Shown here piece after piece: positions 19,515 through 62,514 of a stretch of DNA of 64,000 bases. The stretch's first letter is position 1. The number at the start of each line of letters is the position of its first letter. Origin of the DNA: a bacterium (GTDB taxonomy: Bacteria; Ratteibacteria; UBA8468; B48-G9; DTJG01); contig JAKPDB010000107.1 of the NCBI GenBank assembly GCA_029552985.1, positions 15,170 to 79,169 on the forward strand, in the 5' to 3' direction. The notes under the pieces are model-generated. The model did no database searches and was not told the origin of the DNA. It saw only the letters and a list, made by a program, of their open reading frames with translations. The position numbers were made by a program, and so were the translations under genes.

Positions 19515-19532
19515 GTTTTCCGGGAGGAAACA

Positions 19533-20717: not shown

Positions 20718-20724
20718 GGAGACA

Positions 20725-21477
20725 TTGATAAAACCACTTATTGCGGGCAACTGGAAAATGTACAAAACGCCTTCAGAAGCAGAACTATTTGCTCTGGAGT
20801 TGAAAAAAATTCCACAACAAAATGATAGGGATGTTCTTGTTTGCGTACCGTTTCCTGCACTGGTGGGCGTAAGTAGAATCCTGAAAGATTCTGGAATTTT
20901 TGTTGGAGCGCAAAATGTTTATCCCGCAAAAGAGGGTGCCTTTACCGGTGAGGTGAGTCCATTAATGATAAAGGATGCTGGAGCATCTTTTGTCATTTGC
21001 GGACATTCAGAACGAAGGCAGATTTTTGAGGAAACAGACCAGTTTATATCAGAAAAGGTTAAAATTGTCGTTGATTGCGGGATGACACCGATTTTGTGCG
21101 TGGGTGAAACACTCCAGCAGAATGAAGAAGGTAAAACCTTTTCTGTGGTTGAAAGCCAGTTGAAAATTGGTTTGCAGCACATTTCCAGTTCTTTGATTAA
21201 CAATGTTGTGATTGCATATGAACCTGTCTGGGCGATAGGCACAGGCAAGAATGCAAGTCCGCAACAGGCACAGCAGGTCCACCTTTTTATAAAAAGAGTA
21301 CTTGAGAAAATTTATGGAGGATCTTCCACAATGGTCCGGGTTCTTTATGGCGGCAGTGTAAAGCCAGAAAACATAGATGAATTAATGTCTCAACCAGATA
21401 TCAATGGTGTTCTTGTAGGTGGAGCAAGTTTGAAGATTGAATCTTTTTCAAGAATCGTATCTTTCAAAAAAAATTAA
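20725..21477 (+). CDS. tpiA: triosephosphate isomerase (TTG start)
   Basis: IAGNWKM, AYEPVWAIGTG and GGSV motifs. TTG start follows a GAGGAG SD. Confidence 0.95.
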   Translation: MIKPLIAGNWKMYKTPSEAELFALELKKIPQQNDRDVLVCVPFPALVGVSRILKDSGIFVGAQNVYPAKEGAFTGEVSPLMIKDAGASFVICGHSERRQIFEETDQFISEKVKIVVDCGMTPILCVGETLQQNEEGKTFSVVESQLKIGLQHISSSLINNVVIAYEPVWAIGTGKNASPQQAQQVHLFIKRVLEKIYGGSSTMVRVLYGGSVKPENIDELMSQPDINGVLVGGASLKIESFSRIVSFKKN

Positions 21478-23506: not shown

Positions 23507-24009
23507 GAATGATTTATGAAAGACAGGGTGTTGCCAGGTTCATATCTGTAAATTACATTGGGAAAATTTTTGAAAGAGCAGTGAGAAGATTACAGGTAAA
23601 CCTTGAATTTTCTTATGGATATAGCCGCAGAGTGAGAATCAGTCTTGGTCCGCCTGTTGCGGTTGGTATTTCTGGTGTTAACGAGGTTATTGATATACAT
23701 GTAAAAGATAGAAGTATTTCAGCTGATGTTATTAAAAACAGTTTGAATGAGGTTCTACCTGAGGGGTTGAAGATTACAGAATGTCGTTATCTCATAGATG
23801 GTGAAAAATCACCACCTGAAATTAAGAAAGCCCGGTATAGAATTAGACAATTTCCTGATAATATTGGTGATATGCCAGAATCATGGGATGTGATTAGTAA
23901 AAACTCAGACATGATTGAAATTGAGGTCTGGATTGAAAAATTCAAACACAGGGACCTGTTTGACATTTTCGGCACATCCTGCCAGATAGAAAGAAAATTG
24001 ATTTTTTGA
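23494..24009 (+). CDS. DUF2344 (TIGR03936, radical SAM-linked) family protein
   Basis: ERAVRRLQVNLEFSYGYSRRVRISLGPPVAVG and LNEVLPEGLKI match the remembered DUF2344 consensus. Confidence 0.55.
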   Translation: MPVLRMIYERQGVARFISVNYIGKIFERAVRRLQVNLEFSYGYSRRVRISLGPPVAVGISGVNEVIDIHVKDRSISADVIKNSLNEVLPEGLKITECRYLIDGEKSPPEIKKARYRIRQFPDNIGDMPESWDVISKNSDMIEIEVWIEKFKHRDLFDIFGTSCQIERKLIF

Positions 24010-24068
24010 GCAAATTCAGTATAATTTATTCGTGGGATTTCTTATTCCACGATAATCCAGGAGATATT

Positions 24069-24848
24069 ATGTCAATGAGGTTTTCAATTTCAAAGAGGCA
24101 TGGTTTTGAAAAAAAAATTGTCTCACCGAGAAATTCTGATCTTAAATTTCTTTCATTCAGTTATTTGTTTTCAATGTTTTCGCTCCAGTTTGAACAAAAT
24201 ACTGAAGATGAAGAATGGTTGTGGGTGATTATGTCAGGGAAAATCAATATTACAATAGGAGAAAGTTCCTTTTGTATGGAAAGAAAGGGAGTGTTCAATG
24301 ATAGACCAGTATCTCTATATATTCCTGCGGGTACAAAATATGTCGTGAAATCTGAGGGATTTTCAGAAGCAGTGGCGGTCTCCGCACCATCAGGGAAAAA
24401 TTTTTCTCCTGTATTTATTTCATCTGACGGCATAGAGGTTCAAAGGGCAGGAAAATTGAATTATCAGCGTTCAATTTTTAATATCATGCCTCAGGATTTT
24501 CCTGCTTCCAAAATTATAGCAGGCGAGACAATTCATGATACTGGTCACTGGTCCTGTTTTCCTCCACATAAGCACGATGAAGACAGGATGCCAGAAGAGA
24601 GCAAACATGAGGAACTATATTTTTTCAAATGCGAACCAGAAAAAACAGGCTTCGGACTGATGCGTGTTTACGATGATACACAGGATGTCGCATTTCCGAT
24701 TCTTCCCAATGATGTGATTACCATTCCAAAAGGTTATCATCCAGTAAGTGTGATACCCGGTCATAAACTTTATTATTTCTGGGCGCTTGCTGGTGAAAAA
24801 CGGCCATTTCAAAGACACACGCATCCTGATTATCTTAAGTATGAATAA
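24069..24848 (+). CDS. iolB: KduI/IolB family isomerase (5-deoxy-glucuronate isomerase-like)
   Basis: WSCFPPHKHDEDRMPEESKHEELYFF...RVYDD...IPKGYHPV closely matches B. subtilis IolB (PPHKHDQDNLPEES..EETYYH). SD CCAGGAGA lies before the ATG at 24069. Confidence 0.7.
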   Translation: MSMRFSISKRHGFEKKIVSPRNSDLKFLSFSYLFSMFSLQFEQNTEDEEWLWVIMSGKINITIGESSFCMERKGVFNDRPVSLYIPAGTKYVVKSEGFSEAVAVSAPSGKNFSPVFISSDGIEVQRAGKLNYQRSIFNIMPQDFPASKIIAGETIHDTGHWSCFPPHKHDEDRMPEESKHEELYFFKCEPEKTGFGLMRVYDDTQDVAFPILPNDVITIPKGYHPVSVIPGHKLYYFWALAGEKRPFQRHTHPDYLKYE

Positions 24849-24858
24849 AGGGGGATAT

Positions 24859-25686
24859 ATGAACAAGGAAATTATAGATTTATTCAGTCTTGATGGAATG
24901 AATGCGGTAGTAACAGGGGCAGCAGGAGTACTAGGATTCAGCATATGCGCAGGACTGGCAGGTGCAGGAGCATCCGTGGCCATCGCCGATATAAAAAATT
25001 TTAAAGAAGCAGCAGAGCAGTTGAAAAAAAAAGGTCTTGATGCAGAAGGGTTTTACATTGATGTACTGAAAAAAGACAAGATTATTGAGTGCGCAAAAGA
25101 GATTATGGAGAAATATAAAAAAATTGATATTCTCGTTAATTGCGCTGGGGGCAACTTAAAGGAAGCAACAACATCTCCTGAATTAAGTTTTTTTGATCTT
25201 CCTGTTGAGGGTCTGGAACGGGTTGTGGCTTTGAATCTTTTTGGAGGAGCGATACTACCATCTCAGGTATTTGGCAGGGAAATGGTAAAAAACCCTGACG
25301 GTGGATCTATCATCAATATATCTTCCATGAATGCGTTCAGACCTCTTACGAGAATTCCTGGTTATTCTGCAGCAAAAGCAGCAGTGAGTAATTTTACTCA
25401 ATGGCTCGCAGTGCACTTTGCAATGGAATACAACAAATTGTTAAGAGTTAATGCAATAGCGCCTGGTTTTTTTCTTACTCAACAAAATCGGTATCTTCTG
25501 ATAGACGAAAACAATGATCTTACTCCAAGAGGCAAGACAATTATCAATCACACTCCAATGGGAAGATTTGGTGAGCCAGATGATTTAATAGGAAGTTGTA
25601 TATGGCTTGCATCAAGAGCATCAAAGTTTGTGACAGGCGTTGTAATTCCTGTCGATGGCGGCTTTAATGCATATTCGGGTGTTTAA
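24859..25686 (+). CDS. SDR family oxidoreductase (KduD/mannonate-type sugar-acid dehydrogenase-like)
   Basis: TGAAGVLG Rossmann motif, NCAGG, and the YSAAK catalytic motif. Confidence 0.8.
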   Translation: MNKEIIDLFSLDGMNAVVTGAAGVLGFSICAGLAGAGASVAIADIKNFKEAAEQLKKKGLDAEGFYIDVLKKDKIIECAKEIMEKYKKIDILVNCAGGNLKEATTSPELSFFDLPVEGLERVVALNLFGGAILPSQVFGREMVKNPDGGSIINISSMNAFRPLTRIPGYSAAKAAVSNFTQWLAVHFAMEYNKLLRVNAIAPGFFLTQQNRYLLIDENNDLTPRGKTIINHTPMGRFGEPDDLIGSCIWLASRASKFVTGVVIPVDGGFNAYSGV

Positions 25687-25709
25687 TTTTTACCAAAAAG
25701 GAGCAGAAA

Positions 25710-27197
25710 ATGAAAAAAGCAAATATTGCGATAATTGGAATGGAAGTTATGGGAAGAAGCCTTGCCCTCAATATGGAAAGCAAAAACTATACTGTGGCAG
25801 TTTATAACAGAACAGCAGAAAAAACAAAAGCGTTTGTTGAAGGTCCTGCCAGGGGGAAAAATATTATTCCTACCTATGAGTTAAAAGATCTGGTTGATTC
25901 TCTGGAAAGTCCGAAAAAGATTATGTTGATGGTAAAAGAGGGCCAGCCGGTGGACAATTTTATAGAAATGCTTCTTCCCTATCTGAAGCCTGGAGACCTT
26001 ATTATCGATGGAGGCAATTCATTCTTTAAGGACACAATCAGAAGAAACAAAATGTTATCAGAAAAGGGAATTCTTTTTATTGGAACAGGCGTGTCAGGGG
26101 GAGAAGAAGGTGCATTGAAAGGGCCAGCCATTATGCCTGGAGGACAAAAGGAAGCATATCGACTTGTAGAGAAGATATTCAGGGATATTGCGGCAAAGGC
26201 ATACGACGGTGAGCCGTGCGTTGATTACATAGGTCCTGATGGAGCAGGGCACTTTGTGAAAACTATTCACAACGGAATTGAGTACGGCGATATGCAGTTG
26301 ATTGGTGAGGTTGTGTGGTTTTTTAAAAACATTGGAATGAAGGCAGATGAAATTGCTGATATCATGGCAAAATGGAACGATAGGGACGACATTTTGAGAT
26401 CATACCTGATAGAAATTACTGCTGACAGTATGAAACAAAAACATCAGGGTTCTGACGAATTTCTTGTTGACAGGGTCGCGGATATTACGAGAATGAAAGG
26501 GACTGGCACCTGGACTGTCCAGAGTGCGCTGGAACTATTGGTGCCGATTCCAACAATTGCTGCAGCAGTATTTTCAAGAGAGATGTCTCAGGATAAACAG
26601 TTGCGCCTTGCAATGGCAAAGAAACTAACGATCGCGTCCGGCAAATTCAATGGTGACAAAAAAGAAATTATTGAAATAGCTCACGATGCACTATACATAG
26701 CCAAGATTTCATCATATGCCCAGGGAATTGCTTTGCTTCAGGCTGCTTCAAAAGAGTACAATTTTCACCTGAATATTGGTAGAATTGCAAAAATATGGCG
26801 TGCAGGATGCATCATCAGGGCTCAATTTCTTGATGAAATTACTAAAGCGTATGAATCTGACCCAGACCTTCCAAATCTTCTTGCTGCACCAAAATTTGCC
26901 AGTTTCGTTGAATCTAACACCTGGAAGCTTGCAAAGTTCATTGATGTTGCTCATCAATGCGGAGTGCCTGTTCTGGCTATGTCTGGTGCGCTTGATTACA
27001 TAATGCAGATTACATCGCCTGTGATGCCATCTGCTCAGGTTTCTGCTCTTCAAAGAGATTACTTTGGAGCCCATGGTTATTTCAAAATTGGCGGACCAAA
27101 AGACCCTGAACTTGTTGTAAATGAAGAAGGAAAGGTGCGTGAATTCCATACTGAATGGTTACTTCCAGGAAGACCAGAAAGAGAAATCACAAAGTAA
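25710..27197 (+). CDS. gnd: 6-phosphogluconate dehydrogenase (decarboxylating)
   Basis: IGMEVMGRSLALN, the 495-aa length and a C-terminal 6PGD domain. Confidence 0.9.
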   Translation: MKKANIAIIGMEVMGRSLALNMESKNYTVAVYNRTAEKTKAFVEGPARGKNIIPTYELKDLVDSLESPKKIMLMVKEGQPVDNFIEMLLPYLKPGDLIIDGGNSFFKDTIRRNKMLSEKGILFIGTGVSGGEEGALKGPAIMPGGQKEAYRLVEKIFRDIAAKAYDGEPCVDYIGPDGAGHFVKTIHNGIEYGDMQLIGEVVWFFKNIGMKADEIADIMAKWNDRDDILRSYLIEITADSMKQKHQGSDEFLVDRVADITRMKGTGTWTVQSALELLVPIPTIAAAVFSREMSQDKQLRLAMAKKLTIASGKFNGDKKEIIEIAHDALYIAKISSYAQGIALLQAASKEYNFHLNIGRIAKIWRAGCIIRAQFLDEITKAYESDPDLPNLLAAPKFASFVESNTWKLAKFIDVAHQCGVPVLAMSGALDYIMQITSPVMPSAQVSALQRDYFGAHGYFKIGGPKDPELVVNEEGKVREFHTEWLLPGRPEREITK

Positions 27198-27244
27198 TTG
27201 AGAAACGAAAAAGGTCTTAGTGGTTCGGAGGCAATTTACTGGTT

Positions 27245-28297
27245 GTGTCTTTGTATATGTTTGAAAAATTAGCAAAACAGAAATTACAGGAAACTCCGCA
27301 AGAATATTTGAAAACGTTCGAAAGAACTAAAGATTTTCTTGTGGCAATTGATACGGATGGATGCATTGCCGACAATATGAATGCTAAACAGATATTGATA
27401 TTCCACCCGTTATACATGGAATTCTATCAGCTGTGGGAAATTGAGTCCTACTTCAGAGAGATTGCTGAATTTTATAATCTTTTTTCTGTTCACAGGGGTT
27501 GCAATAGATTTCTTGCTATCAGGTACACATTAAATGCTTTGCACAGTCGTCAGGATGTTCGAAATGAAGTAAAAAAACTAAATGTAACTCTACCAGAAAT
27601 TAAGCCAGTTGAGCAATACATTGAATTTTGTAGAAAGAATAACTACGGCATGGGAAATGTTTCTCTGGACCAATTTCTGTCAACGCGAGTTTTTGATTCT
27701 GGACTTTATAAACTATCAGGGTGGAGTCAGGCGGTTAATAAAGCACTTGAGTATATCGTTGATAAAGTTCAACCTTTTGAGAATGTGAGGGAGTGTCTTG
27801 AAATAATTTACAAGCACGCGGACATTGCTGTGATTTCTCAAACTCCTTATGAAGATTTATTTAATTACTGGAATACACATGGTCTTTTGAAATATGTAAA
27901 AGTGATTTGCGGTCAGGAGATGGGAAGCAAAACGTATCATATAGAGATGTTGAAAAAGGTTGGCAAATATTCTGATGAGGCGGTACTAATGGTTGGTGAT
28001 GCTATCGGGGATTTTGAGGCAGTTAAGAAAAATAACGGACTTTTCTATCCTGTTGTTCCTGGGAATGAAAACGATTCCTGGAAAAAATTTCCAGAGGTGT
28101 TTGAATTGTTTTTGACGGGTAAGTATCATGGGGAATTAGAGCAATACTTGATTGGTGAATTTTCAAAAAAATTACCTGATAGGCCACCGTGGCAAACACA
28201 GGGTTATGATCATACCGCTTCTTACAGAAAAAATCAGGAAATCAGGAAATCTCTTTATAAACAATTTAATCCTGACGGGAGGTTACTCATTTTATGA
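27245..28297 (+). CDS. HAD superfamily hydrolase (putative phosphatase) with a large cap domain
   Basis: Motif I VAIDTDGCI and motif IV MVGDAIGDFEA. The GTG start is 14 nt after GGAGG; an alternative ATG is at 27257. Confidence 0.6.
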   Translation: MSLYMFEKLAKQKLQETPQEYLKTFERTKDFLVAIDTDGCIADNMNAKQILIFHPLYMEFYQLWEIESYFREIAEFYNLFSVHRGCNRFLAIRYTLNALHSRQDVRNEVKKLNVTLPEIKPVEQYIEFCRKNNYGMGNVSLDQFLSTRVFDSGLYKLSGWSQAVNKALEYIVDKVQPFENVRECLEIIYKHADIAVISQTPYEDLFNYWNTHGLLKYVKVICGQEMGSKTYHIEMLKKVGKYSDEAVLMVGDAIGDFEAVKKNNGLFYPVVPGNENDSWKKFPEVFELFLTGKYHGELEQYLIGEFSKKLPDRPPWQTQGYDHTASYRKNQEIRKSLYKQFNPDGRLLIL

Positions 28298-29580
28298 AAA
28301 TAGGAACAGGCAATAAGAATGAGGTTCTGTCTGAACAGAAATTTGGTTCTATTTTACAGAATATTGTGATATCTCTTGGTCTGGAGAAAAAGGAAAAGGT
28401 TCTGGTTATTATACCTGATAGTACTCGTTCAGGTCCAACAGGAGATGTTTTTAGAGTCATAGTTGATACTCTTTACCACAGGGTTAAAAAGCTGGATTTT
28501 ATGATCGCACTTGGAACTCATCCAGTAATGACAGTGGAAAACATTGAAAAATTGCTTGGAATTAACTGTCAGAAGTTCCAGGAGAAATATCCGCAGACGC
28601 AGATATTTCAACACTGCTGGGATGATGAAAAAACGATAGTGGAAATTGGTACCATTACAGCCAGCGAAATTTCGAGAATTTCTCGTGGGCTTTTAAACGA
28701 GGATATCCCTGTGACAATTAACAGAACCATACTTGATTATGACCACATTATTCTCGCAGGACCTGTTTTTCCTCACGAGGTTGTTGGGTTTTCTGGTGGA
28801 TATAAGTATCTTTTTCCTGGAATTTCAGGTCCTCATTTCCTTCACAAATTCCACTGGCTCGGCGCTTTAATTACAAATCCTAAGATCAATGGCGTGAAAG
28901 ATACTCCTGTCAGAGAAGCAATAAACAAAGCAGTTTCTTTTATAAATAAGCCAATCACACAGATATGTTATGTGGTAAAAGAAAAAAAGGTCTATGGAAT
29001 ATTCGCAGGAGACAATGAGGCATGGTCTGCAGCAGCAGATCTATCTGCGCAATTGAATATTGAATATGTCGACAGAAGTTATAACGAGGTTCTTTCAATG
29101 GCGCCAGTGATGTATGATGACATATGGACTGCCGGTAAATGTATGTATAAACTTGAACCGATTGTTTCTGATGGTGGAAATTTAATTATCTATGCTCCAC
29201 ATATCACAGAGGTTTCTTATACACACGGAAAGTACATCAGACAGGTTGGATATCATACGCGTGACTATTTTCTTAAACAATGGGAAAGATTTAAGAATTT
29301 TCCAGGCGGTATCCTTGCCCATTCCACTCATGTCAAGGGTATCGGCACTTTTCTTGATGGAATTGAAACTCCAAGAATCAACGTTTATCTTGCAACTGGC
29401 ATAAGTAAACAGGTGTGCCAGCAAATTAACCTCGGCTATATCAATCCAGATGAGATCAACATTGATGATTTTCGAAAGAAACAGGATACTTTTGTTGTGG
29501 AAAATGCAGGAGAGATACTATTCAGATTGAAAAGTGGCCAAGTTCCAGACATTGATAAACTTTATGAGAGGCGAAAATGA
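28294..29580 (+). CDS. LarA family (lactate racemase-like) nickel-pincer-nucleotide-dependent hydroxyacid racemase/epimerase homolog
   Basis: N-terminal DUF2088-like motifs IIPDSTRSGP and ALGTHP. The FPHEVVGFSGGYKYLFPG segment matches the LarA H..GxSGGxK cofactor-tethering region. 428 aa. Start overlaps the HAD stop (ATGA). Confidence 0.65.
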   Translation: MKIGTGNKNEVLSEQKFGSILQNIVISLGLEKKEKVLVIIPDSTRSGPTGDVFRVIVDTLYHRVKKLDFMIALGTHPVMTVENIEKLLGINCQKFQEKYPQTQIFQHCWDDEKTIVEIGTITASEISRISRGLLNEDIPVTINRTILDYDHIILAGPVFPHEVVGFSGGYKYLFPGISGPHFLHKFHWLGALITNPKINGVKDTPVREAINKAVSFINKPITQICYVVKEKKVYGIFAGDNEAWSAAADLSAQLNIEYVDRSYNEVLSMAPVMYDDIWTAGKCMYKLEPIVSDGGNLIIYAPHITEVSYTHGKYIRQVGYHTRDYFLKQWERFKNFPGGILAHSTHVKGIGTFLDGIETPRINVYLATGISKQVCQQINLGYINPDEINIDDFRKKQDTFVVENAGEILFRLKSGQVPDIDKLYERRK

Positions 29581-30947
29581 GTTATTTATTTAAAAAACAA
29601 TATCCAGATTTTAGACTTTTTGAAAGTTCCTTGAGAAAGCATGGTGACGATTATTACTTTGTTGCTGAAAAAAATGGAAGGATGTATCTGGTTATTGGAA
29701 ACAATTCCTTTCGGTTTATTGAACGAGAGGAATCACCTGAAATATTAAGAAAAACGTTTTCATTTCTCACCCCGGTCTGTGCAGGTATGAAAAATTCCTT
29801 TGGCTTTGGCGACCGGACAGGTTTTGCAACCCCAGGGCATATCCGTGCAGTAGAGGGAAGTGGGCTTTTCCCAATTTTTGCGCAGCAGTCAGCAAGGGAA
29901 CTCGAAAGAACAGGAAGGACATTCAAACAGGTTCTTGACGATGTAATTTTTTGGTGTTTTGCCTTTGGCTGGATAAATGGTTTTGGAGCGGATGCTGACC
30001 ATGCGAAAAATTTTGATGTTTTACAGGAAGCAATTTCTGCTGGCTACACATTTTTCACCATTGACCCCTCTGATAAAATCAGAAACCCATCAGACATTGC
30101 ATCGTGCAAAAAGCAAAGTATCGACAAATACATTAAGGAATATTCTGGTAAGAATTTCGCATGTAATGGATTTTCTTTTGTTTTCACTGAAGAAATGGTT
30201 TCTGAACTTGCTATTACATATGGGCAAGCTATTGATTTCATTGAGGAGTGTTATTTATTTATTTCTGACAGGAAAAAGAATTTTGATTTTGAGGTTTCTG
30301 TTGATGAAACAAAAGTCCCGACAACTGTTTATGCCCATGTATTTATTGTTATGGAGCTTCGCAGGAGAAATATTGAATTCAATAGCCTTGCTTTGCGTTT
30401 TTCCGGAAGATTTGAAAAGGGGATAGATTATATTGGAGATATTAATGAATTTGCCAGAGAACTGGAAATTCATAATAAAATACGGAATCATCTTGGACCA
30501 TATAAGATTTCACTCCATTCTGGAAGCGACAAATTCAGTATATATGGTGCGTTCAAAAAAACACTTGGAGACATGTTTCATGTCAAGACATCTGGGACTT
30601 CGTGGATTCAGGCGATGAAAACCATTGCAGCAATTGACAGGGAATTTTTTATGAAGTGTCTGGAAGTTGCGCTGAAGGACTTTGAAAAAAATTCAAGGTC
30701 CTATGAAATTTCCACAGATATTTCAAGGATAAATTTAGAAAAAATAAGGAACGAAAATCTTGATGAGATATTTTCCGATAATCATATCAGGCAGTTGATT
30801 CATATCAGTTATGGAAGTATTATTGGAAACGCTCCTGAGAGTCAGGAAATGAAACAACATTACAACATCCTGATTGAAAAAAATTGTGAGCTTTATTTTC
30901 GTTTTATTGAAGAACATTTGAAGAAACATGTTCAACTGCTTACATGA
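29577..30947 (+). CDS. GatZ/KbaZ-like TIM-barrel protein (candidate sugar-acid/sugar-phosphate epimerase, UxaE/tagatose-6P epimerase-like)
   Basis: Local resemblance to E. coli GatZ segments (GADADHAKN..AISAGYTFFTIDPS vs GGDHLGPN..YVAAGFSKIHLDAS; LHSGSDKF..HVKTSGTSW vs EAHSTDY..ILKVGPAL). Start overlaps the LarA stop (ATGA). Confidence 0.45.
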   Translation: MSYLFKKQYPDFRLFESSLRKHGDDYYFVAEKNGRMYLVIGNNSFRFIEREESPEILRKTFSFLTPVCAGMKNSFGFGDRTGFATPGHIRAVEGSGLFPIFAQQSARELERTGRTFKQVLDDVIFWCFAFGWINGFGADADHAKNFDVLQEAISAGYTFFTIDPSDKIRNPSDIASCKKQSIDKYIKEYSGKNFACNGFSFVFTEEMVSELAITYGQAIDFIEECYLFISDRKKNFDFEVSVDETKVPTTVYAHVFIVMELRRRNIEFNSLALRFSGRFEKGIDYIGDINEFARELEIHNKIRNHLGPYKISLHSGSDKFSIYGAFKKTLGDMFHVKTSGTSWIQAMKTIAAIDREFFMKCLEVALKDFEKNSRSYEISTDISRINLEKIRNENLDEIFSDNHIRQLIHISYGSIIGNAPESQEMKQHYNILIEKNCELYFRFIEEHLKKHVQLLT

Positions 30948-30957
30948 AAGGAGAAAT

Positions 30958-32880
30958 ATGAACAAAAAAAGATTTCCTTATAGCCAGTTGCCTGAAAGTG
31001 AAATTAAGAAACTTCAGGAATTCAGCAATCTCTGTCGAAGGGATGTGCTGACAATGACAACTCTTGCTGGTTCTGGGCATCCTGGTGGTTCAATGTCTGC
31101 TATGGAAATTTACAATGTTGTCTTCCATTATGCAGCAATCAGTCCTGATGCCCCAGATGATCCTGAGAGAGATAAAATTGTTGTCAGTTTTGGCCATACT
31201 TCTCCTGGTGTGTATGCTGTGTTAGGAAGGCTTGGTTTTTTTGACCTTGATACAGCCATTGCTTCCTTCAGACAGGCAGGTAGTATTTTTGAAGGGCACA
31301 TTGTGAGAAAAGTGCCAGGGGTTGAATGGGGCACAGGAAATCTGGGGCAGGGACTATCTGCGGGTTGTGGTTTTGCTCTGATTGATAAAATAAAAAATCG
31401 GGATACTTTTACCTTCGTGTTGATGAGTGATGGTGAACAGACAAAGGGTCAAGTGGGCGAGGCACGTCGTTTTGCAATCAAATACAAACTTAACAATCTC
31501 AGGGTTATTATTGATTATAACAGAATTCAAATCAGCGGCTGTATTTTTGATATCATGCCTAACAACATTAAGGAAAACTATCTTGCTGATGGATGGGAAG
31601 TAATGGAGACCGATGGTCATGACATATCCGACCTTTACGACACGATTAGAAGAAGTTTAGAAATTGATAAACCTGTTTGTATCATTGCCAGCACAGTTAT
31701 TGGAAAGGGTGTTTCTTTTATGGAAGGTAAATGTGCCTATCATGGAAAAGTTTTGAAGGAAGACGAGTACATGAAAGCCGTGGAAGAACTTGGTCTTTGT
31801 AGCGAACTTGAAAAATACAGAGAAATCAGAAAAAATAAAATGTATTCATTTCCAGACAGAACGTTCGATATTAAAATTTCAGCGCTTCAGGGCTCTATCC
31901 GGGTGTATCAGCCAGGTACAAAAATTGATAATCGCACAGCATTTGGAAACGCATTGCTTGACATTGGAATAGCCAATAAGGATAACAAAGACAATCCAGT
32001 AATTGTTTTTGATTGCGACCTTGCAAGTTCTGTTAAAACAGATTTATTTGCAAAACAATTTCCTGAAAGATTTTTTCAATGTGGTGTTCAGGAACATCAT
32101 GCAGCGACTGTAGCAGGGGCTGCTTCTGTTGATGGCGCCATCAGTTTTTTTGCTGATTTTGGGGTTTTTGGAGTGGATGAAACTTACAATCAGCACCGGT
32201 TGAATGACCAGAATTATACAAATTTGAAAATTGTGTGTACGCATCTTGGGCTTGATGTGGGAGAAGATGGAAAGACTCATCAGTGCATTGATTATGTGGG
32301 ACTATTCAGAAATGTTTTTGGAATAAGACTCATTATACCCGCAGATGCCAATCAAACCGATAGAGTAATCAGATATGTTGCCACTCATCCTGGAAATTAT
32401 TTTGTTGGAATGGGTCGTTCCTATACACCGATTATAACAACTTCTGATGGGAAACCATTTTTTGGAGAAAAATATCAATTCGAATACGGCAAGGCAGATA
32501 TTTTAAGAGATGGGAAACATGGATTTATTTATACTTTGGGAGCACTGGTGCCAAGAGCAGTTGCTATTTCTGACCGGCTCAGGCAGGATGGAGTTAGTAT
32601 TGGTGTTATCAATTGCTCATGCCCTGTTATAATTGATAGGGAAGCAATGGAATTGGGCATAAAAACTGGTTTGATCATATCATATGAAGACCATGTGGTT
32701 GATTCAGGGCTTGGTATGACAATTGCTGCATATATTGCTGAAAAACAAGTTAACGTGAAATTTCACAGGTTTGGTATTAGGAAATACGGTAGTTCAGGAA
32801 CACCTGATGAACTTTATGCTGAACATGGGCTTGACCCTGAAACAATGATATCTTTTATTAAAAGCATTATTAAAAAATAA
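30958..32880 (+). CDS. tkt: transketolase (single-chain, ~640 aa)
   Basis: GSGHPGGSMS TPP motif. SD AAAGGAGA precedes the ATG at 30958. Confidence 0.85.
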   Translation: MNKKRFPYSQLPESEIKKLQEFSNLCRRDVLTMTTLAGSGHPGGSMSAMEIYNVVFHYAAISPDAPDDPERDKIVVSFGHTSPGVYAVLGRLGFFDLDTAIASFRQAGSIFEGHIVRKVPGVEWGTGNLGQGLSAGCGFALIDKIKNRDTFTFVLMSDGEQTKGQVGEARRFAIKYKLNNLRVIIDYNRIQISGCIFDIMPNNIKENYLADGWEVMETDGHDISDLYDTIRRSLEIDKPVCIIASTVIGKGVSFMEGKCAYHGKVLKEDEYMKAVEELGLCSELEKYREIRKNKMYSFPDRTFDIKISALQGSIRVYQPGTKIDNRTAFGNALLDIGIANKDNKDNPVIVFDCDLASSVKTDLFAKQFPERFFQCGVQEHHAATVAGAASVDGAISFFADFGVFGVDETYNQHRLNDQNYTNLKIVCTHLGLDVGEDGKTHQCIDYVGLFRNVFGIRLIIPADANQTDRVIRYVATHPGNYFVGMGRSYTPIITTSDGKPFFGEKYQFEYGKADILRDGKHGFIYTLGALVPRAVAISDRLRQDGVSIGVINCSCPVIIDREAMELGIKTGLIISYEDHVVDSGLGMTIAAYIAEKQVNVKFHRFGIRKYGSSGTPDELYAEHGLDPETMISFIKSIIKK

Positions 32881-34105: not shown

Positions 34106-35182
34106 ATGAAAATTACTAAAAAGGAGGAGATTTTGAGAGCCGCTATTTTCCATGGTCCAGAAAAAATTTCTGTAGAGAACTGGAAATTACCAGTGTGTGC
34201 AGACGACGAGATTTTGATAAAAGTGAATTATTGTGCGATATGCGGTACAGATGTTAGAACCTTTTTCCATGGACATAAGAAAGTGATTCCTCCTGCTATT
34301 ATCGGGCATGAAATAACAGGAGAAATTGTTGAAATCGGAAAAGAGGTAAAAACAAACCTGAAAGTTGGTGATAGAATCACGCCTGTTACTTCTATTGGTT
34401 GCGGTGTCTGTCGACTATGTCAGAAAGGACTTTATAATCTATGTCCTGATACAAAGGCGCTTGGATATTACTGGGCTGGAGGATTTGCTGAGTACATGAT
34501 TATTCCAGGACCTGCTGTAAAACAAAATGCCTGGGTACTTTTACCTGAAAATGTTTCTTTGCTTGAGGGGGCTCTCATTGAACCTCTTTCTTGTGTCATC
34601 AATGCTCAAAATTACTTAAACATACAGGATGGAGATACAGTTGTGATTTATGGTGGAGGACCCATTGGATTTATGCACGCTGTTATGGCTCAGACATCAG
34701 GCGCAGAAAAACTTATTATGGTGGACCCTGCGTTTGATCGTCTTGAGAAATTTGCGAGGAATTTCGACAATATTATTCTGATAAATCCAAATACTGAAAA
34801 TACTGTTGCAAAAATAAAAGATATTACCAGAAATTTTGGTGCGGATGTGGTTATCACTGCATGTCCTGCAAAGCAGGCACAGATTGAGGCATTTTCTATT
34901 GCGGCACCGCACAGTAGAATCAGTTTCTTCGGCGGGCTTCCAAAAGATGATTCAATGATTACGATTGACAGCAATCTGATTCATTACCTGGAAATCTCAG
35001 TTTTTGGAGCATTTGCGTCAAATCGAAAAGATTATCAGAAAGCAGTGGATTTAATATCTTCAAGAAAAATAGATCCGTCAAAATTCATCACTGAAGTAAT
35101 TTCTCTTGAAGAGATTGAAAAGGGAATTCGTCTTGTGAAGAATGGCAGTGTATTAAAGGTTGTGGTGAAGATACAGGAGTAA
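34106..35182 (+). CDS. zinc-dependent alcohol dehydrogenase (sorbitol/threonine dehydrogenase-like MDR)
   Basis: CAICGTD...GHE Zn motifs and the GGGPIG NAD motif. The likely true start is the in-frame TTG at 34133, 5 nt after AAGGAGG. Confidence 0.85.
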   Translation: MKITKKEEILRAAIFHGPEKISVENWKLPVCADDEILIKVNYCAICGTDVRTFFHGHKKVIPPAIIGHEITGEIVEIGKEVKTNLKVGDRITPVTSIGCGVCRLCQKGLYNLCPDTKALGYYWAGGFAEYMIIPGPAVKQNAWVLLPENVSLLEGALIEPLSCVINAQNYLNIQDGDTVVIYGGGPIGFMHAVMAQTSGAEKLIMVDPAFDRLEKFARNFDNIILINPNTENTVAKIKDITRNFGADVVITACPAKQAQIEAFSIAAPHSRISFFGGLPKDDSMITIDSNLIHYLEISVFGAFASNRKDYQKAVDLISSRKIDPSKFITEVISLEEIEKGIRLVKNGSVLKVVVKIQE

Positions 35183-35185
35183 ATC

Positions 35186-35977
35186 ATGAAATCAGAGGTT
35201 TTGAAAGACAAAATTACAATTATCACAGGTGCAGGAAGAGGTCTTGGAGAGGCATTAAGTTATGGATTTGCACAAGAGGGTGCAATCATATGTCCATGGG
35301 ACATTGATGAAAACAATCTAAATAGGGTTGCAGAAGAATTGAAAAAACTTAACAGGCTTGGAAGAAAAGCAAAACTTGATATTACTGACGAACATCAGGT
35401 GAAAAAAGAAATTGAAGCGATTGAATCAGAATTCAGGAAAATTGATATTTTAATTGCTAATGCAGGTATTTTGAGGTCCTATGAAATCACAGATTTTCCA
35501 GAAGAGGATTGGAGGAAAATTATTGAGGTAAATCTCACAGGATATTTTATTTGTGCAAAGTATACTGCAAGGGTAATGAAGAAACAACGTAGTGGAGTGA
35601 TTATTCAAATTAACTCAAAGTCAGGAAAAAAAGGAAGCTACTGGAATTGCGCGTATGCGGCAAGCAAATTTGGCGGTATCGGGCTTACACAGAGCATTGC
35701 ACTTGATCTTGCACCGTTTAATATCAGAGTTAATGCGATATGCCCCGGGAATATTCTTGAAAGTCCTCTATGGCAGACAAGTTTGTTTCAGCAGTATGCA
35801 AAAAAATGGGGCATTTCCATAGAGGAGGTTAAGAAAAAATATATTGACCAGGTACCTCTCGGCAGGCCGTGCACATACAAGGATGTGATTAATGTGGCTG
35901 TTTTTCTTGCAAGCGATTATGCCAGTTACATGACAGGCCAGGCAATTAACGTGACCGGTGGTCAGGAAATGAGATGA
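35186..35977 (+). CDS. srlD: sorbitol-6-phosphate 2-dehydrogenase-like SDR
   Basis: IIQINSKSGKKGS, AAKFGGIGLTQSIALDL and ASYMTGQAINVTGGQEM closely match E. coli SrlD. Confidence 0.75.
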   Translation: MKSEVLKDKITIITGAGRGLGEALSYGFAQEGAIICPWDIDENNLNRVAEELKKLNRLGRKAKLDITDEHQVKKEIEAIESEFRKIDILIANAGILRSYEITDFPEEDWRKIIEVNLTGYFICAKYTARVMKKQRSGVIIQINSKSGKKGSYWNCAYAASKFGGIGLTQSIALDLAPFNIRVNAICPGNILESPLWQTSLFQQYAKKWGISIEEVKKKYIDQVPLGRPCTYKDVINVAVFLASDYASYMTGQAINVTGGQEMR

Positions 35978-39805: not shown

Positions 39806-39825
39806 AGTGCTGGTTGATACAAAAA

Positions 39826-40770
39826 ATGAAGCGATTGGTAAGCATTTTCATTAAAGTATTCGTAAGCGGGTTTTTTATATTCCTTATTACCAAGAAGATT
39901 GATATCCCGCAGATGATTGAAATTTTGCAAAATGTAGATGTTCCATTTTTCATAGTCATCATTCTGATTAATTACGTGGTGACTTTTTTTATGGCTCTCA
40001 GATGGTACTTTATTCTGGACGAATTCAGAAAAAAAATGCCATTTGCTAAAGTGTGGCAATTGTCTCTTATTGGAATGTATTTTAATATCATTTTACCGAC
40101 TGGAGCAGGCGGAGATGCCGTCAAAATTTTTTATATTACCAGAAATCAGGAGGAAAAATTGAAACTTGGTACATCTGTAATTTTTGATCGATTTATTGGT
40201 TCGTCATCTATCATTTTTATGGCTATACTCAGTTTATTATATTATCAGGGACACTTGCCTCAAAAATTGAAAATTACCCTTGTATTTCTTTTCATTCTTG
40301 CGCTGTCTGTCTGGCTTTTGATCGTCTGGGATAAACTTGCCATTTTGACGGGGAAACTTTTTCCTCGTAGAATCAGAGAAAAGTTAAGGGCATTCTATAA
40401 TCATCTCAGGGATTATGGGATTAATCGAAGGGTTTTTACCAATGCCTTTCTGGCAAGCATGGCTGTTCAGGTGATTTCGATTTATGTTCAGTATTTATGT
40501 GTAATACTCATTTCTCATGCGGATAAAGCATTTGTTCCTTTCCCTTTGTTTTTTATATTCATTCCCATTATATGGCTTTCAGCAATGATTCCTTCCCTCG
40601 GCGGGCTTGGAATAAGGGAATATGGTTATCTTTTTTTCTTTAAACCTTTTATCGGTCAGGAAGCAGCAATTGCAATGGCACTGATTAATCTGTTTTTAAT
40701 TTTTTCCCAGGCATTTCTCGGGGGATTGATTTTTTTATTTCTTCGTCAAGGTCTTCGAGACCGCAAATAA
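39826..40770 (+). CDS. flippase-like / lysylphosphatidylglycerol-synthase TM-region (UPF0104) membrane protein
   Basis: Polytopic membrane protein with a GGDAVK motif in the first loop. Confidence 0.5.
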   Translation: MKRLVSIFIKVFVSGFFIFLITKKIDIPQMIEILQNVDVPFFIVIILINYVVTFFMALRWYFILDEFRKKMPFAKVWQLSLIGMYFNIILPTGAGGDAVKIFYITRNQEEKLKLGTSVIFDRFIGSSSIIFMAILSLLYYQGHLPQKLKITLVFLFILALSVWLLIVWDKLAILTGKLFPRRIREKLRAFYNHLRDYGINRRVFTNAFLASMAVQVISIYVQYLCVILISHADKAFVPFPLFFIFIPIIWLSAMIPSLGGLGIREYGYLFFFKPFIGQEAAIAMALINLFLIFSQAFLGGLIFLFLRQGLRDRK

Positions 40771-41703
40771 ATGTGTTTTTCAGCAATTGTATTACCTCGT
40801 CAGGACTTGGAAAATCTGTAAAAGCCCTTGCTGCCTTTGCTGTTGCGGATGCAACTGCAAACCTTAACGATTCTTTGAAATTGCCTGTTTGAGAAAAAGA
40901 CAAAACGAATCCAGCAAGAAGGACATCACCACACCCGACAGAACCAGGATTATTAACGACTGGACCGTTTGCATAAAAAAAGCCATCCTTTGAGAATCCA
41001 ATAGCTCCTTTGTCTCCCATTGTGACGATAATAAATGGAATCCCTGATTTTAGCAGTTTTTCCCCTGTCTGACATAGATGTTCAAAATTGAGAATCCGTT
41101 CCGACATAAGTCTTTCAAGTTCCCAGATATTGGGCTTTATTAAATCAGGTTTTTCGCCAACGCCATAACGAAGAAATTTTCCATCTGTATCAAGGCCAAT
41201 CAACGTATTTTTTCCTCTTCGGCGGATTTCTTTTATTAATCTGGCGTATAAATCTTCAGGCATTCCAGGAGGTAAACTACCAGAAATGAGAATCCATTTT
41301 GCAGGATTAAAATCAATACTGAATATAAATTTAAGTATTTCCTTCAGGGACTGTTTGTTTATGGTAGGACCAGGTTCATTGAATCGTAAGACTGTACCGT
41401 TTTCAAAAAAAAATTGTAATTTTCTCTGGTTTCTCCCTCTATATCAATTATGAAATCAGTGGAAATGCCTGATTTTTTTAAAAGATTTTTGAAACGGGTT
41501 CCGTTAAAACCGCCTGCAATGCCAACTGATTGTACATCTACATTAAACTTGCTCAGAAATTTTGCAATATTAATCGCCTTACCGCCCGCAGATACAATCT
41601 TTTTGCTGATTCGGATAATATCGTCTGTTTTGAATTCTTTGGCAAAACAGTTAACGTCCAGACACGGATTCAAGCCAATTGTAATAAAACTATTTTGCGG
41701 CAT
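40685..41703 (-). pseudogene. PfkB-family sugar kinase (1-phosphofructokinase / tagatose-6-P kinase / KDG-IolC-like), frame disrupted at a T9 homopolymer
   Basis: The N-terminal ORF (41703-41359) and C-terminal ORF (41263-40685) are both PfkB-like. Reading through the 9-nt A/T run at 41405-41413 with one extra base gives a continuous ...NYNFFFENGTVLRFNEPGPTINKQSLKEILKF...ISGSLPPGMPEDLY PfkB sequence. Confidence 0.7.
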
Positions 41704-41711
41704 GGAACTTT

Positions 41712-41879
41712 CTATGCTGATTGAGTTCGATATTTTTTGATTTTTTTGCGACGTCTCAACTGGCTGGGTTTTTCATAGAACTCTCGTTTCTTGATTTCTC
41801 TGATAATGCCTTCCTTTTCAACCTCGCGTTTGAATTGTTTGAAAATTTTTTCAAAGTGTTCGTGGTGTTGTTTTTCCAC
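41712..41879 (-). CDS. rpsU: 30S ribosomal protein S21 (GTG start; absent from the ORF track)
   Basis: Translation ...[43 protein letters not shown] carries the S21 hallmark R(R/K)EFYEKPS. GGGAGGGGG lies upstream. Confidence 0.7.
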
Positions 41880-41900: not shown

Positions 41901-42065
41901 CTAATACCTGTCTATTTCAAACAGGCGGGCACCGCAATGCCTGCATTTCTTTTCGTCAGGATAATATCCATCAACGATGAAACAAACCCTGCAGCGGATG
42001 TTAATTCTTTCCAGCGGTGGTCGTATTGTTTTTACTTCTGGTTTTGATTTTTCCTTTTCACTCAT
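41901..42065 (-). CDS. small zinc-ribbon protein (54 aa, CxxC...CxxC)
   Basis: MSEKEKSKPEVKTIRPPLERINIRCRVCFIVDGYYPDEKKCRHCGARLFEIDRY, immediately upstream of rpsU. Below the ORF-track size cutoff. Confidence 0.35.
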   Translation of the reverse strand: MSEKEKSKPEVKTIRPPLERINIRCRVCFIVDGYYPDEKKCRHCGARLFEIDRY

Positions 42066-42075
42066 TTGTTATCCT

Positions 42076-42894
42076 TTAAAGCTTAATTATAATATTTTCA
42101 AAAAGATCTGTCAAGAAAGGCTCTGCTGCTGCAGCTGTCGCCAGAATTTCCTCGAATGTTGTCACCTTTAGAGCATCAGGCAGACACATATCGCTAATTA
42201 CAGATGCTCCAAAAACTTTTAAACCTGCATGCACTGCAGCAATAACCTCAATAACCGTGGACATACAAACCATATCAGCGCCGATCGCTCTTAAAAATCT
42301 GTATTCTGCTCTTGTTTCAAGATTTGGCCCGGTTAATCCTACGATGACTCCCTTTTTGACTGGAATTTTTTTCTCAAGGGCAATGTTTTCGGCAAGCTCA
42401 ATGATTCCAGCATCATACACATTTGACATATCAGGGAACCTTACCCCGATTTCTTCATAATTGGGTCCTATTAACGGATTATGTCCGGTAAGATTAATAT
42501 GGTCAGTGATAATTACAATGTTTCCAGGTTTAAACATAGGGTTCAAACCGCCCGCAGCATTAGATTCAAGAAGAATTTTCACTCCAAGAAATTTTAGAAC
42601 TCTGATGGGAAGAGCAATTTCCTGTGCGGTATAGCCCTCATAAAGGTGAAACCTACCTTGGAACGCAACGATGCTTTTATCTCCAATTGTTCCAAAAATG
42701 AGGTTGCCTGCATGACCTTCGACTGTAGAAACAGGAAAATTGGGAATAGAATCATAAGAAACAACTTTCTCAATATTGATTCTATCTGTAAATTTACCAA
42801 GCCCTGTTCCAAGAATAATTCCTATTTCTGGTTTTGTCCTAGTAATTGTTTTCAGAAATGCAGCTGTTTCTTTAATTCTGGATAGTTCATCCAT
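42076..42894 (-). CDS. purine nucleoside phosphorylase (PNP/MTAP family)
   Basis: GIILGTGLG, HAGNLIFG and ESNAAGGLNP motifs. Confidence 0.8.
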   Translation of the reverse strand: MDELSRIKETAAFLKTITRTKPEIGIILGTGLGKFTDRINIEKVVSYDSIPNFPVSTVEGHAGNLIFGTIGDKSIVAFQGRFHLYEGYTAQEIALPIRVLKFLGVKILLESNAAGGLNPMFKPGNIVIITDHINLTGHNPLIGPNYEEIGVRFPDMSNVYDAGIIELAENIALEKKIPVKKGVIVGLTGPNLETRAEYRFLRAIGADMVCMSTVIEVIAAVHAGLKVFGASVISDMCLPDALKVTTFEEILATAAAAEPFLTDLFENIIIKL

Positions 42895-51546: not shown

Positions 51547-52668
51547 TTATATTAGATTTTGTTTTTTCAATGTCAGAAACATGCGAATTCTACCAACAGC
51601 AAATCCACCGAATCCGAAAACCAGAAATGGCACCTGAACAATCACACCTGCCTTTGGTATTGCAGTGAAAAGAACAAAAACTCCGGTTCCAACAAATATG
51701 GCAAGAATCAGTTTCAATTTGCTTTCTTTCAGCTTGAAAAGAATAATTCTTCCCAGTGCAATGCAAGTGAATCCACGACACAAATATAGAAGAGATATAT
51801 AAAATGTTAATAATATCAATCCGATCGGAGCACCAATCACAGTGACCATCAAGAGTATCATGATTAATGGAGTAATCAACAGTAGTAGGATACCACTGAA
51901 AAAAATCCAGATGGGTTTTTTTTCTATAATTTCTATTGTTTCCTGAAGGACCCTTGGCGTAATGATCGTCATTAAAAGAAAAGGGAAACACAAACTCAAA
52001 AACGAATATAATTTTCTGAATTTAGACGAAAAAAAGATCTGTGCCTTTTGAGGAATAGGTGGTTCATATTTGAAGTTGCAATGTTTAAGCACATTTATAG
52101 GAAGAGAAGGTTTCGTCTGACTCTGTACAAAAAGGTCTTTGATCTCAATATTTTTTGTAAAAATAATATCTCTGGTTTTTATGTGAACAGTTTTATAATG
52201 TCCACCCATCTGAATATCTCTTGACCATATTTTGGTACTATTTTTGCATCTTACGCTGTCAGCCATCAGTATTTCAGGTGAAACGATATTAACATTGCCA
52301 TCAATTTCACAATTTTCTACTATTAAATTTCTTGCCATTACCTTCAGATTTCCCTTAATTGTTCCAGAAATTCTCACGGTGTCACCTGCGATATAAACGT
52401 CTTTGTTTGATATTCCATTAAAGTTAATAGTAATGCCGAATAAAATCACATCTTCATATGAAGTGCCTGAAAATTCCAAATTTTTTCCAATAGCAATCAT
52501 GTTGTTCATAAAACTGCGTTGCATTTTTAAATCCCTACCAGACAAAAAATCTTCGAGCTCCTGGTTTGTGGCCATATCCATCATTGCATGAACCTGAAAC
52601 CCGAACAAGAAAACCAGAATCAATAGAAGTTTTTTCATATTTTTTTTAGCATTGGTATTTCGTCGCAT
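51547..52668 (-). CDS. membrane protein with signal peptide, bactofilin-like beta-helical repeat region and C-terminal polytopic TM domain
   Basis: Repeating short beta-strand segments ([31 protein letters not shown]) followed by ~5 TM helices. Confidence 0.4.
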
Positions 52669-53096
52669 CTCGGAAATTTTGGGCAGTTAATACAATCAAT
52701 CCATATTTTATGTGGAAGTTTTGTCTTTTCTATTCGAACAAAACCAAACTTTTCAAAAAATTCAGGAACATATGTAAGTACAAAAATTTTTTTTGTGCCA
52801 ATTTTTTTTGCCTCATTTAATAATGTTTCAACCAGCAGTGAACCATATCCCTTTTTTTGCTTTGAATTTTTAATGGCAAGGGATCTGATTTCGCCAAGGT
52901 CCTTCCATACAATTTTCAAACATCCACAACCCAAGATTTTCCCTTTTTTATCACAGATTACCCAGAAGTTTCTCAAATTTTCAAATACCTGATTTATTGA
53001 AACAGGAAGCATTTTTCCTTTTTTTGCCTGGTCGTTTATGAGATTTTTTATAAAATACGCATCAGCAACTACAGCTGGTCTGATGTCAATCTTCAT
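52635..53096 (-). CDS. GNAT family N-acetyltransferase (short ArgA-like, C-terminal CxxC motif)
   Basis: GNAT acetyl-CoA motif (GYGSLLVETLLNEAKK) and C-terminal [10 protein letters not shown]. Sits next to argG. Confidence 0.6.
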   Translation of the reverse strand: MKIDIRPAVVADAYFIKNLINDQAKKGKMLPVSINQVFENLRNFWVICDKKGKILGCGCLKIVWKDLGEIRSLAIKNSKQKKGYGSLLVETLLNEAKKIGTKKIFVLTYVPEFFEKFGFVRIEKTKLPHKIWIDCINCPKFPRCDEIPMLKKI

Positions 53097-53700: not shown

Positions 53701-54014
53701 TTTTCGATCTCCTTTATGTATCGAAGAATTTTTTTCAACAATGCTGATGAATTCTGTTTATTCTTTTTCTGCGTGTTATGGATATCATGGAATTTTTTTT
53801 TAACACCTACGATTTTGTATCCATTCTGGTATAGCAATTTTTGAATTTGTTTGATTCTTTCAACATCCTTTGCAGAATATATTCTTCTTCCAGCAGGATC
53901 CCTCTGAATTTTCAAAAAAGAAAACTGTTTCTCCCAGTATCTTAAAATATGCGTGCCGACTCCTGTAATTTCAGAAACCTCACTGATACTGTAATAACGG
54001 TTATGCTCACTCAT
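53688..54014 (-). CDS. MerR family transcriptional regulator
   Basis: N-terminal HTH YSISEVSEITGVGTHILRYWE. Confidence 0.7.
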   Translation of the reverse strand: MSEHNRYYSISEVSEITGVGTHILRYWEKQFSFLKIQRDPAGRRIYSAKDVERIKQIQKLLYQNGYKIVGVKKKFHDIHNTQKKNKQNSSALLKKILRYIKEIEKCLP

Positions 54015-62512: not shown

Positions 62513-62514
62513 TT

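Follow-up and report, generated by a model that had tools for sequence, protein, structure and literature searches.

A conserved T9 frame break in a PfkB-family sugar kinase gene of Ratteibacteria, probably decoded by transcriptional slippage

To our knowledge, few bacterial genes that are not mobile carry a conserved recoding site: prfB, dnaX and a handful more. Homopolymer recoding is nevertheless an established phenomenon, and poly-A/T sites are described in one survey as supporting a transcriptional or a ribosomal mechanism (PMC3711429). Nine A or T residues are the classic threshold for efficient slippage by bacterial RNA polymerase, and many genomes deplete such runs from that length on (PMC1088944, PMC5009743). 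In Shigella flexneri mxiE (mxiEa/mxiEb), one non-templated nucleotide at a U run fuses two open reading frames (ORFs) (PMC1088944, PMC5009743). At an A9 run in Thermus thermophilus dnaX, mRNAs of more than one kind arise and two proteins result (PMC1088944, PMC5009743), and poly(A/T) frameshifts in Blochmannia and Buchnera are rescued by transcriptional slippage, as related in PMC3017870 (Tamas 2008, Wernegreen 2010). Here we describe a T9 run that breaks the frame of a PfkB-family sugar kinase gene in a 64-kb stretch of the Ratteibacteria contig JAKPDB010000107.1 (the whole stretch is hereafter the window). The broken gene is most likely a recoding site that is read by polymerase or ribosome slippage.

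The run occupies window positions 41405–41413 on the minus strand (A9 on the plus strand, U9 in the mRNA), where the minus-strand sequence reads GAG ACC AGA GAA AAT TAC AAT TTT TTT TTG AAA ACG GTA CAG. The upstream ORF (41703–41359, minus strand, 114 aa) stops 15 codons past the run, and the −1 frame is free of stops from just 5′ of the run to a stop at 40685. What gene callers predict in that −1 frame is its longest ORF beginning with ATG, 41263–40685 (192 aa). Adding one T at the run yields a 339-aa kinase with the junction ...ETRENYNFFFENGTVLRFNEPGP..., and removing two nucleotides yields a 338-aa protein; homology places the junction within the T9 run itself. A first-pass annotation of the window had read the two adjacent minus-strand ORFs as parts of one PfkB kinase whose frame switches exactly at this 9-nucleotide (nt) run and is restored by either change. 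Our analysis bears this out: its coordinates are exact, and the Pfam, NCBIfam and PDB alignments given below span the site. The parts of the gene are as follows.

41413..41703, minus strand: kinase codons 1–97 (M1 to N97), 0 frame, ending with AAT, whose T is the first of the run.
41405..41413, minus strand: T9 run, the candidate slippage or recoding site, which would join both frames through one added U, the loss of two or a −1 ribosomal shift; it encodes F98–F100.
41359..41404, minus strand: 0-frame tail LKTVQSYDSMNLVLP and stop, made without a shift; neither its sequence nor its length is conserved, and most other lineages have 6 codons and a stop.
40685..41404, minus strand: kinase codons 101–339 and stop in the −1 frame; the catalytic GCGD, NxxE and GG motifs are invariant.

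The first 47 codons of the −1 frame, up to M148 at 41263, contain no in-frame start and include the conserved motifs NEPGP and GSLPPG. A scan of the 64 kb for homopolymer-linked frame switches identified the T9 run as the only such break within a gene, the others being ordinary overlaps at gene junctions. As the window has just four A/T runs of 9 and none longer, the coincidence of run and frame break is not due to chance. On the minus strand, no terminator-like site of the intrinsic type was found at the run. The predicted tryptic peptides over the junction are ENYNFFFENGTVLR after a +1 change, ENYNFFENGTVLR after a −2 change and ENYNFFLK in the 0 frame.

With one nucleotide added, the protein matches Pfam PF00294 over residues 15–300 (133 bits, cutoff 25.8) and the NCBIfam model TIGR03168, '1-PFK hexose kinase', over residues 7–310 (255.9 bits, cutoff 216.4). 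Its alignment with fructose-1-phosphate kinase (PDB 2abq) covers residues 7–305 and is gapless across the site (E=1e-39); it also aligns with tagatose-6-phosphate kinase (2awd), again continuously, and with Pfk-2 (3cqd). The GG, NxxE and GxGD motifs are all present, and G40, G41, K42, N192, E195 and G257-C-G-D260 are invariant in our alignment of related proteins (A1). Scores fall below the cutoffs of the narrower equivalog models for FruK (TIGR03828, 246 bits versus 292), LacC (TIGR01231, 126 versus 410) and Pfk-2 (NF007632, 112 versus 353). Judged from its sequence, the corrected protein is a kinase of the FruK/LacC/PfkB type, for which fructose-1-phosphate, tagatose-6-phosphate, fructose-6-phosphate or another compound is the candidate substrate. 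Identity as KdgK or IolC is ruled out by scores of 23–30 bits (23–25 against cutoffs of 400–440 for the 2-keto-3-deoxygluconate kinase models, 30 against 300 for IolC). The earlier label 'FruK/LacC/KdgK/IolC-like' was thus right as to the FruK/LacC subfamily and too broad in its second half.

Public records annotate the gene in many metagenome-assembled genomes (MAGs) as two 'PfkB family carbohydrate kinase' fragments, and our searches returned the same picture. Most of the closest matches to the corrected protein (45–100% identity) were C-terminal fragments of about 190–236 aa, with one full-length match at 56% and others only from about 43% identity down. Six matches were obtained with the N-terminal 99 residues (7 candidates), all of them 105–118-aa fragments ending NFFL...; at least one of these N-terminal fragments, P0127, represents a lineage beyond the ten listed below. 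An identical copy of the window's 114-aa fragment, with its out-of-frame tail, is present in 7 contigs and has three NCBI accessions. A profile scan of genome contigs with alignment A1 gave at least 600 rows, mostly distant PfkB genes (Paenibacillus and others), of which loci L011, L012 and L013 were useful. A scan of metagenome contigs with the single protein gave 4 loci, 3 of them from the species of locus L003. The source MAGs derive from bioreactor, groundwater and lake-type metagenomes and are labelled Ratteibacteria or Omnitrophota.

Orthologs from at least ten distinct lineages, the most divergent at 46% amino-acid identity, have exactly nine T's in one codon phase. The lineages are listed with their identity to the window protein.

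L100, the window gene: 100%, T9; JGI 3300025631.
L001/L002: 84%, T9; two 'Candidatus Ratteibacteria' MAGs.
L003/4/5/91-93: 77%, T9; ENA, NCBI and JGI.
L101: 62% (N-terminal fragment P0125), T9; Logan.
L007: 57%, T9.
L008/9: 57%, T9.
L098/99: 54% (C-terminal fragment P0013), T9.
L010: 53%, T9.
L097: 51% (C-terminal fragment P0011), T9; 5′ end cut by the contig end.
L013: 46%, T9.

Every split copy reads AAY TAY AAT TTT TTT TT followed by G or A, and the flanking codons vary freely. The assemblies that carry T9 are independent, as their SPAdes (NODE_), MEGAHIT (k141_), Logan and JGI contig names show. Among the loci examined, four relatives are in frame:

L006 and L011: T10, in frame, NHNFFFEDG.
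L095: AAT TTT TTT TTC, that is T9+C, in frame.
L096: T7, one codon shorter, in frame, NFFING.

Neither T8 nor T11 was seen at the site among the orthologous loci examined. On a neighbour-joining tree of the corrected proteins, the T9 state spans the whole clade, within which in-frame states are nested in two positions. This clade alone has the third Phe: sequences of more distant relatives read NFFS, NFFA, NFIS or similar, so protein constraint does not dictate the run. The T10 gene of L011 also has a second T9 run, at 680–688, which is in frame (TGG ATT TTT TTT TGT, W-I-F-F-C).

With one +1 correction applied, each copy sampled in full encodes an uninterrupted protein of 331–339 aa with invariant PfkB GG, NxxE and GCGD motifs. 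We estimated the ratio of non-synonymous to synonymous substitution rates (dN/dS) by the Nei-Gojobori method for the three closest T9 species, among which synonymous divergence (dS) is 0.37–0.89. The ratio is 0.11–0.21 for codons 1–97, 0.26–0.28 for codons 101–147 (the 'bridge') and 0.13–0.17 for codons 148–339. In-frame relatives (T10, T9+C or T7) have equal values; for the T10 pair L006/L011 the ratio is 0.18–0.31, the same range as in the T9 species. In the proposed frames, differences concentrate at third codon positions. In neutral simulation at 0.45 substitutions per site, the downstream frame of 239 codons acquired a mean of 10 stops and was open after 0 of 3000 runs; at 0.1 per site, 2.7% of runs kept it open. 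Within the bridge, no start codon in frame is available in the window, L001 or L003. Because this selected segment precedes the first possible start, it must be translated in the −1 frame, so the frame has to shift at the run or close to it. The frame break has long persisted under purifying selection on both sides and is best explained as ancient.

The conserved T9 frameshift is probably decoded by transcriptional slippage. RNA polymerase on the dA9 template would realign the weak rU:dA hybrid, and a fraction of transcripts would receive U10 (or U7), uniting codons 1–97 and 101–339 in one frame. These transcripts would direct synthesis of a full-length 1-PFK-family kinase (...NYNFFFENG...). 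Unslipped transcripts would give a short fragment of 105–118 aa with a tail of 6–15 non-conserved residues, presumably discarded. The net effect would be a kinase output that is a fraction of the level given by promoter and translational context. We infer from the nucleotide sequence that slippage occurs, that the transcriptional mode prevails over the ribosomal one and that down-tuning is the purpose.

The main alternative is −1 ribosomal frameshifting, in which the mRNA keeps U9 and tRNA-Phe in the P and A sites on U_UUU_UUU slips back by one base to give the NFFFENG product. The sequence AA[U UUU UUU]UUR is a perfect X_XXY_YYZ heptamer in 0-frame phase, the phase is conserved in all lineages and the shift needed at the run is indeed −1. 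The usual surroundings of such a site are missing here: the 60 nt downstream have minimum free energy z-scores of −1.0 to +0.9 and no conserved hairpin or pseudoknot, the RNAalifold consensus for this region is −0.46 kcal/mol with a compensatory change in one of five predicted pairs, and upstream sequences, judged by eye, show no consistent stimulator resembling a Shine–Dalgarno (SD) element. The eighth and ninth T's, superfluous to the heptamer, are also invariant, and the run length matches the threshold for transcriptional slippage. The ninth T is invariant even though TTC would encode the same residue in the −1 frame and accounts for about 30% of the Phe codons in the rest of these genes. 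As an argument for polymerase slippage this last point is statistically weak, the lineages being few and related. The absence of downstream structure and of an SD-like element, together with the invariant ninth T, leads us to favour transcriptional slippage and to regard a purely ribosomal shift as possible yet unlikely, although both mechanisms may contribute to the full-length kinase. The numbers of A/T runs in the window are 173 of length 6, 83 of length 7, 14 of length 8, 4 of length 9 and 0 of length 10 or more, with counts roughly halving at each step up to 7. The abrupt drop in long runs suggests that runs prone to slippage are selected against in this genome, whose GC content is 38%.

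The other explanations are set against the same conservation. DNA-level phase variation, which the first-pass annotation raised as an on/off switch, would have replication slippage toggle the tract between T9 (off) and T10 (on) for bet-hedging; homopolymers do mutate easily, and both lengths are found among deep relatives. We consider it very improbable. T9 is present in every assembly of each T9 species (7–10 contigs for the window species, 15 for the L003 species), so that consensus contigs reveal no length polymorphism within species and the 'off' length is fixed across deep divergence. The run state tracks phylogeny rather than sample, with T8 and T11 unseen, and selection in T9 lineages is not relaxed. 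The gene itself, for a metabolic enzyme of the cytoplasm encoded in a ribosomal-protein operon, is neither a surface nor a restriction-modification gene and is of a kind for which contingency switching would not be expected. An inactivated and decaying kinase, broken by a 1-nt deletion, would fit the listing of the gene as two fragments in public records, and sharing of the break by orthologs had been named beforehand as the sign of a true pseudogene. The break is indeed common to the orthologs, but dN/dS is 0.11–0.28 on both sides of the run, the 10 lineages contain no second lesion where neutral simulation expects about 10 new stops at the observed divergence, and the orthologs, at 46–84% identity, are not contaminating copies of one sequence. 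Decay is accordingly an extremely unlikely account.

A sequencing or assembly error over a genomic T10, also proposed at first pass, has next to no probability, even though homopolymers are error-prone on some platforms. The same T9 recurs in SPAdes, MEGAHIT, Logan and JGI assemblies of many samples, in the window species and nine other lineages, and no other homopolymer frame break is found in the 64 kb. T10 was moreover assembled in L006 and L011, whose accessions (JAMW...) are adjacent to that of the T9 locus L099; the three would appear to come from one project, with a pipeline able to assemble either length. Finally, the two ORFs could be translated apart and assemble into an active split enzyme, and some lineages do have a GTG or TTG a few codons past the run that gene callers use as a start. 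Those starts are not conserved. In the window, L001 and L003, translation could begin only at M148, which would lose 47 conserved residues that are under purifying selection in the −1 frame, and the break lies within a β-strand region that aligns continuously in solved structures. This arrangement thus seems scarcely credible.

Several considerations weigh against decoding by transcriptional slippage. Its occurrence at T9 is deduced from the DNA, and U_UUU_UUU is also a canonical −1 slippery heptamer that would give an identical protein. Slippage efficiency at nine T's varies by organism (PMC1088944). Assemblies are consensus sequences, so a minority T10 subpopulation is possible. The phylogeny is a simple neighbour-joining tree, on which recurrent T10-to-T9 losses are a possible origin, although long persistence under selection is shown. 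The operon of L006 runs with an in-frame T10; with T10 lineages in frame, attenuation is dispensable. Three further genes in the window hold in-frame A9 runs, and slippage of this kind would harm them:

24109-24117: A9 run in kduI, in-frame Lys tract (E-K-K-I).
25024-25032: A9 run in the gene for a KduD-like short-chain dehydrogenase/reductase (SDR), in-frame Lys tract (L-K-K-K-G).
53793-53801: A9 run in a MerR-family regulator gene, in-frame Lys tract (V-K-K-K-F).

If polymerase slips at 9-nt runs, the kduI, SDR and MerR genes would also give some frameshifted transcripts. The kduI run was considered as a second recoded gene and rejected, the run being in frame.

The kinase gene belongs to a conserved gene order, which the split and related orthologous loci all share. 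On its own strand, this comprises genes for an ATP-binding cassette (ABC) ATPase, proC, a purine-nucleoside phosphorylase (PNP) gene, a small Cys-rich ORF, rpsU and pfkB; the conserved convergent genes on the other strand are an LPG_synthase_TM gene, nusB, ribH and ribBA. Three features precede the kinase:

42086..42114, minus strand: predicted sigma-70-type promoter, TTGACA-17-TATAAT (12/12), inside the 3′ end of the PNP gene and upstream of small ORF-rpsU-pfkB.
41901..42065, minus strand: first gene of the unit, a small ORF of 54 aa that has two zinc-ribbon-like CxxC pairs and matches no Pfam family; an ORF of 53–59 aa holds this place in all related loci.
41712..41879, minus strand: rpsU, ribosomal protein S21 (Pfam PF01165, 56 bits), adjacent to the kinase in all orthologous loci.

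The rpsU stop lies 9 nt before the kinase start codon. Loci L001, L003, L098, L008, L010, L013 and L006 have a promoter match of 11–12/12 at an equal distance, about 700 nt 5′ of the T run; they are all the orthologs with enough upstream sequence and include the T10 locus L006. Sequence and spacing indicate that the kinase is most likely co-transcribed with the small ORF and rpsU from this strong promoter. At their 3′ ends, the kinase gene and the convergent LPG_synthase_TM gene (39814-40770) share 86 nt (window 40685-40770), and each orthologous locus has a similar overlap of 64–86 nt.

Within such a unit, a decoding step passed by only a fraction of transcripts or ribosomes would scale kinase output down, and the 0-frame product of 105–118 aa is probably waste. 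We tentatively entertain, as a less likely extension, that the T9 tract is an ancient regulatory device, not a tolerated lesion, and sets the ratio of kinase to S21. If the tract is regulatory, kinase synthesis could be tied to the nucleotide or energy state of the cell, since the pools of UTP and of the next nucleoside triphosphate influence reiterative addition of U.

The first-pass annotation had also cast the kinase as the missing phosphorylation step for nearby sugar-acid genes. A functional link between the two is unsupported, although biochemically conceivable: the protein is of the FruK/LacC/PfkB subfamily, its conserved partner is rpsU, and the uronate and sugar-acid genes are on the plus strand, 9–17 kb away, with a riboflavin operon and nusB in between. 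No KdgK-type kinase was seen among the window ORFs scanned. The genes concerned are these:

24006-24848, plus strand: kduI.
24787-25686, plus strand: KduD-like SDR gene.
25710-27197, plus strand: gnd.
28294-29580, plus strand: LarA-like (Lar_N) gene.
29577-30947, plus strand: uxaE, tagaturonate epimerase.
30928-32880, plus strand: transketolase gene.
34106-35977, plus strand: genes for a zinc-dependent alcohol dehydrogenase and an SDR.

A hydrolase gene of the haloacid dehalogenase (HAD) type also lies within the uronate/pentose-phosphate cluster (24006-32880, plus strand). Elsewhere, the window carries gap-pgk-tpi at 18510-21477 and a ROK-family kinase gene at 5085-6020. A release factor gene at 62509-63624, with PCRF and RF-1 domains, encodes RF1 or an unshifted RF2; no CTTTGAC, the +1 frameshift motif of the prfB type, was found near its start. 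A 373-aa ORF at 51547-52668 (minus strand) matches no Pfam family at E<=1e-5 and has an A8 run at its junction with the upstream ORF 52635-53096.

Our literature search found no report of recoding in pfkB or phosphofructokinase genes and nothing relevant for Omnitrophota together with frameshifting; the main text of the GeneTack survey mentions no pfkB cluster (PMC3711429). The interest of the site lies in its depth of conservation, its non-endosymbiont setting and the natural T9/T10/T9C/T7 series, which could separate polymerase from ribosomal slippage. Found in moderate-GC environmental bacteria, it offers a clean natural test of tolerated versus selected homopolymer frameshifts. If our reading is true, it would be among very few deeply conserved programmed transcriptional-realignment sites in chromosomal central-metabolism genes of free-living bacteria, and would span a candidate-phylum-level clade (Ratteibacteria and Omnitrophota-labelled MAGs). 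Metabolic reconstructions may score the kinase as broken or absent in these uncultivated bacteria, in which the conserved coding sequence indicates that it is very probably expressed. For genome scans, a break common to orthologs does not imply a pseudogene.

How does the locus compare with known systems? Like the solved TIGR03168 kinases (2abq, 2awd and 3cqd), the window kinase aligns over its full length, has the GG, NxxE and GxGD motifs and scores above the subfamily cutoff; it differs in lying below all equivalog cutoffs, and none of those relatives is reported here to need recoding. The run in mxiE is a T9 tract at which one added nucleotide is required. Decoding of mxiE by slippage at a T run is credited to Penno et al. 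2005, as described in PMC1088944 and PMC5009743, which speak of a 'run of Us' and of '9A/9T'. As in mxiE, where the longer fusion is the functional product, two overlapping ORFs would be joined by one extra U. That gene, in contrast, is a plasmid-borne virulence regulator of one genus with experimentally shown slippage, whereas ours is a chromosomal metabolic kinase known from sequence, and its site is conserved over much deeper divergence.

With dnaX the kinase gene shares a 9-nt homopolymer in a chromosomal gene, but the logic is reversed: there the long product comes from the templated length and the short functional gamma subunit from slippage, whereas here slippage would be needed for the long product, and the short product shows no conservation. 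Blochmannia and Buchnera offer the closest parallel in form, since there too, as described in PMC3017870, a single poly(A/T) indel in an otherwise intact housekeeping gene is kept between species without decay, and some lineages revert to the intact frame. Those genomes are tiny and extremely AT-rich, with strong drift and hundreds of long tracts; the kinase run, by contrast, stands in an environmental genome of 38% GC in which long runs are depleted, and its conservation, to about 46% amino-acid identity, appears to be deeper.

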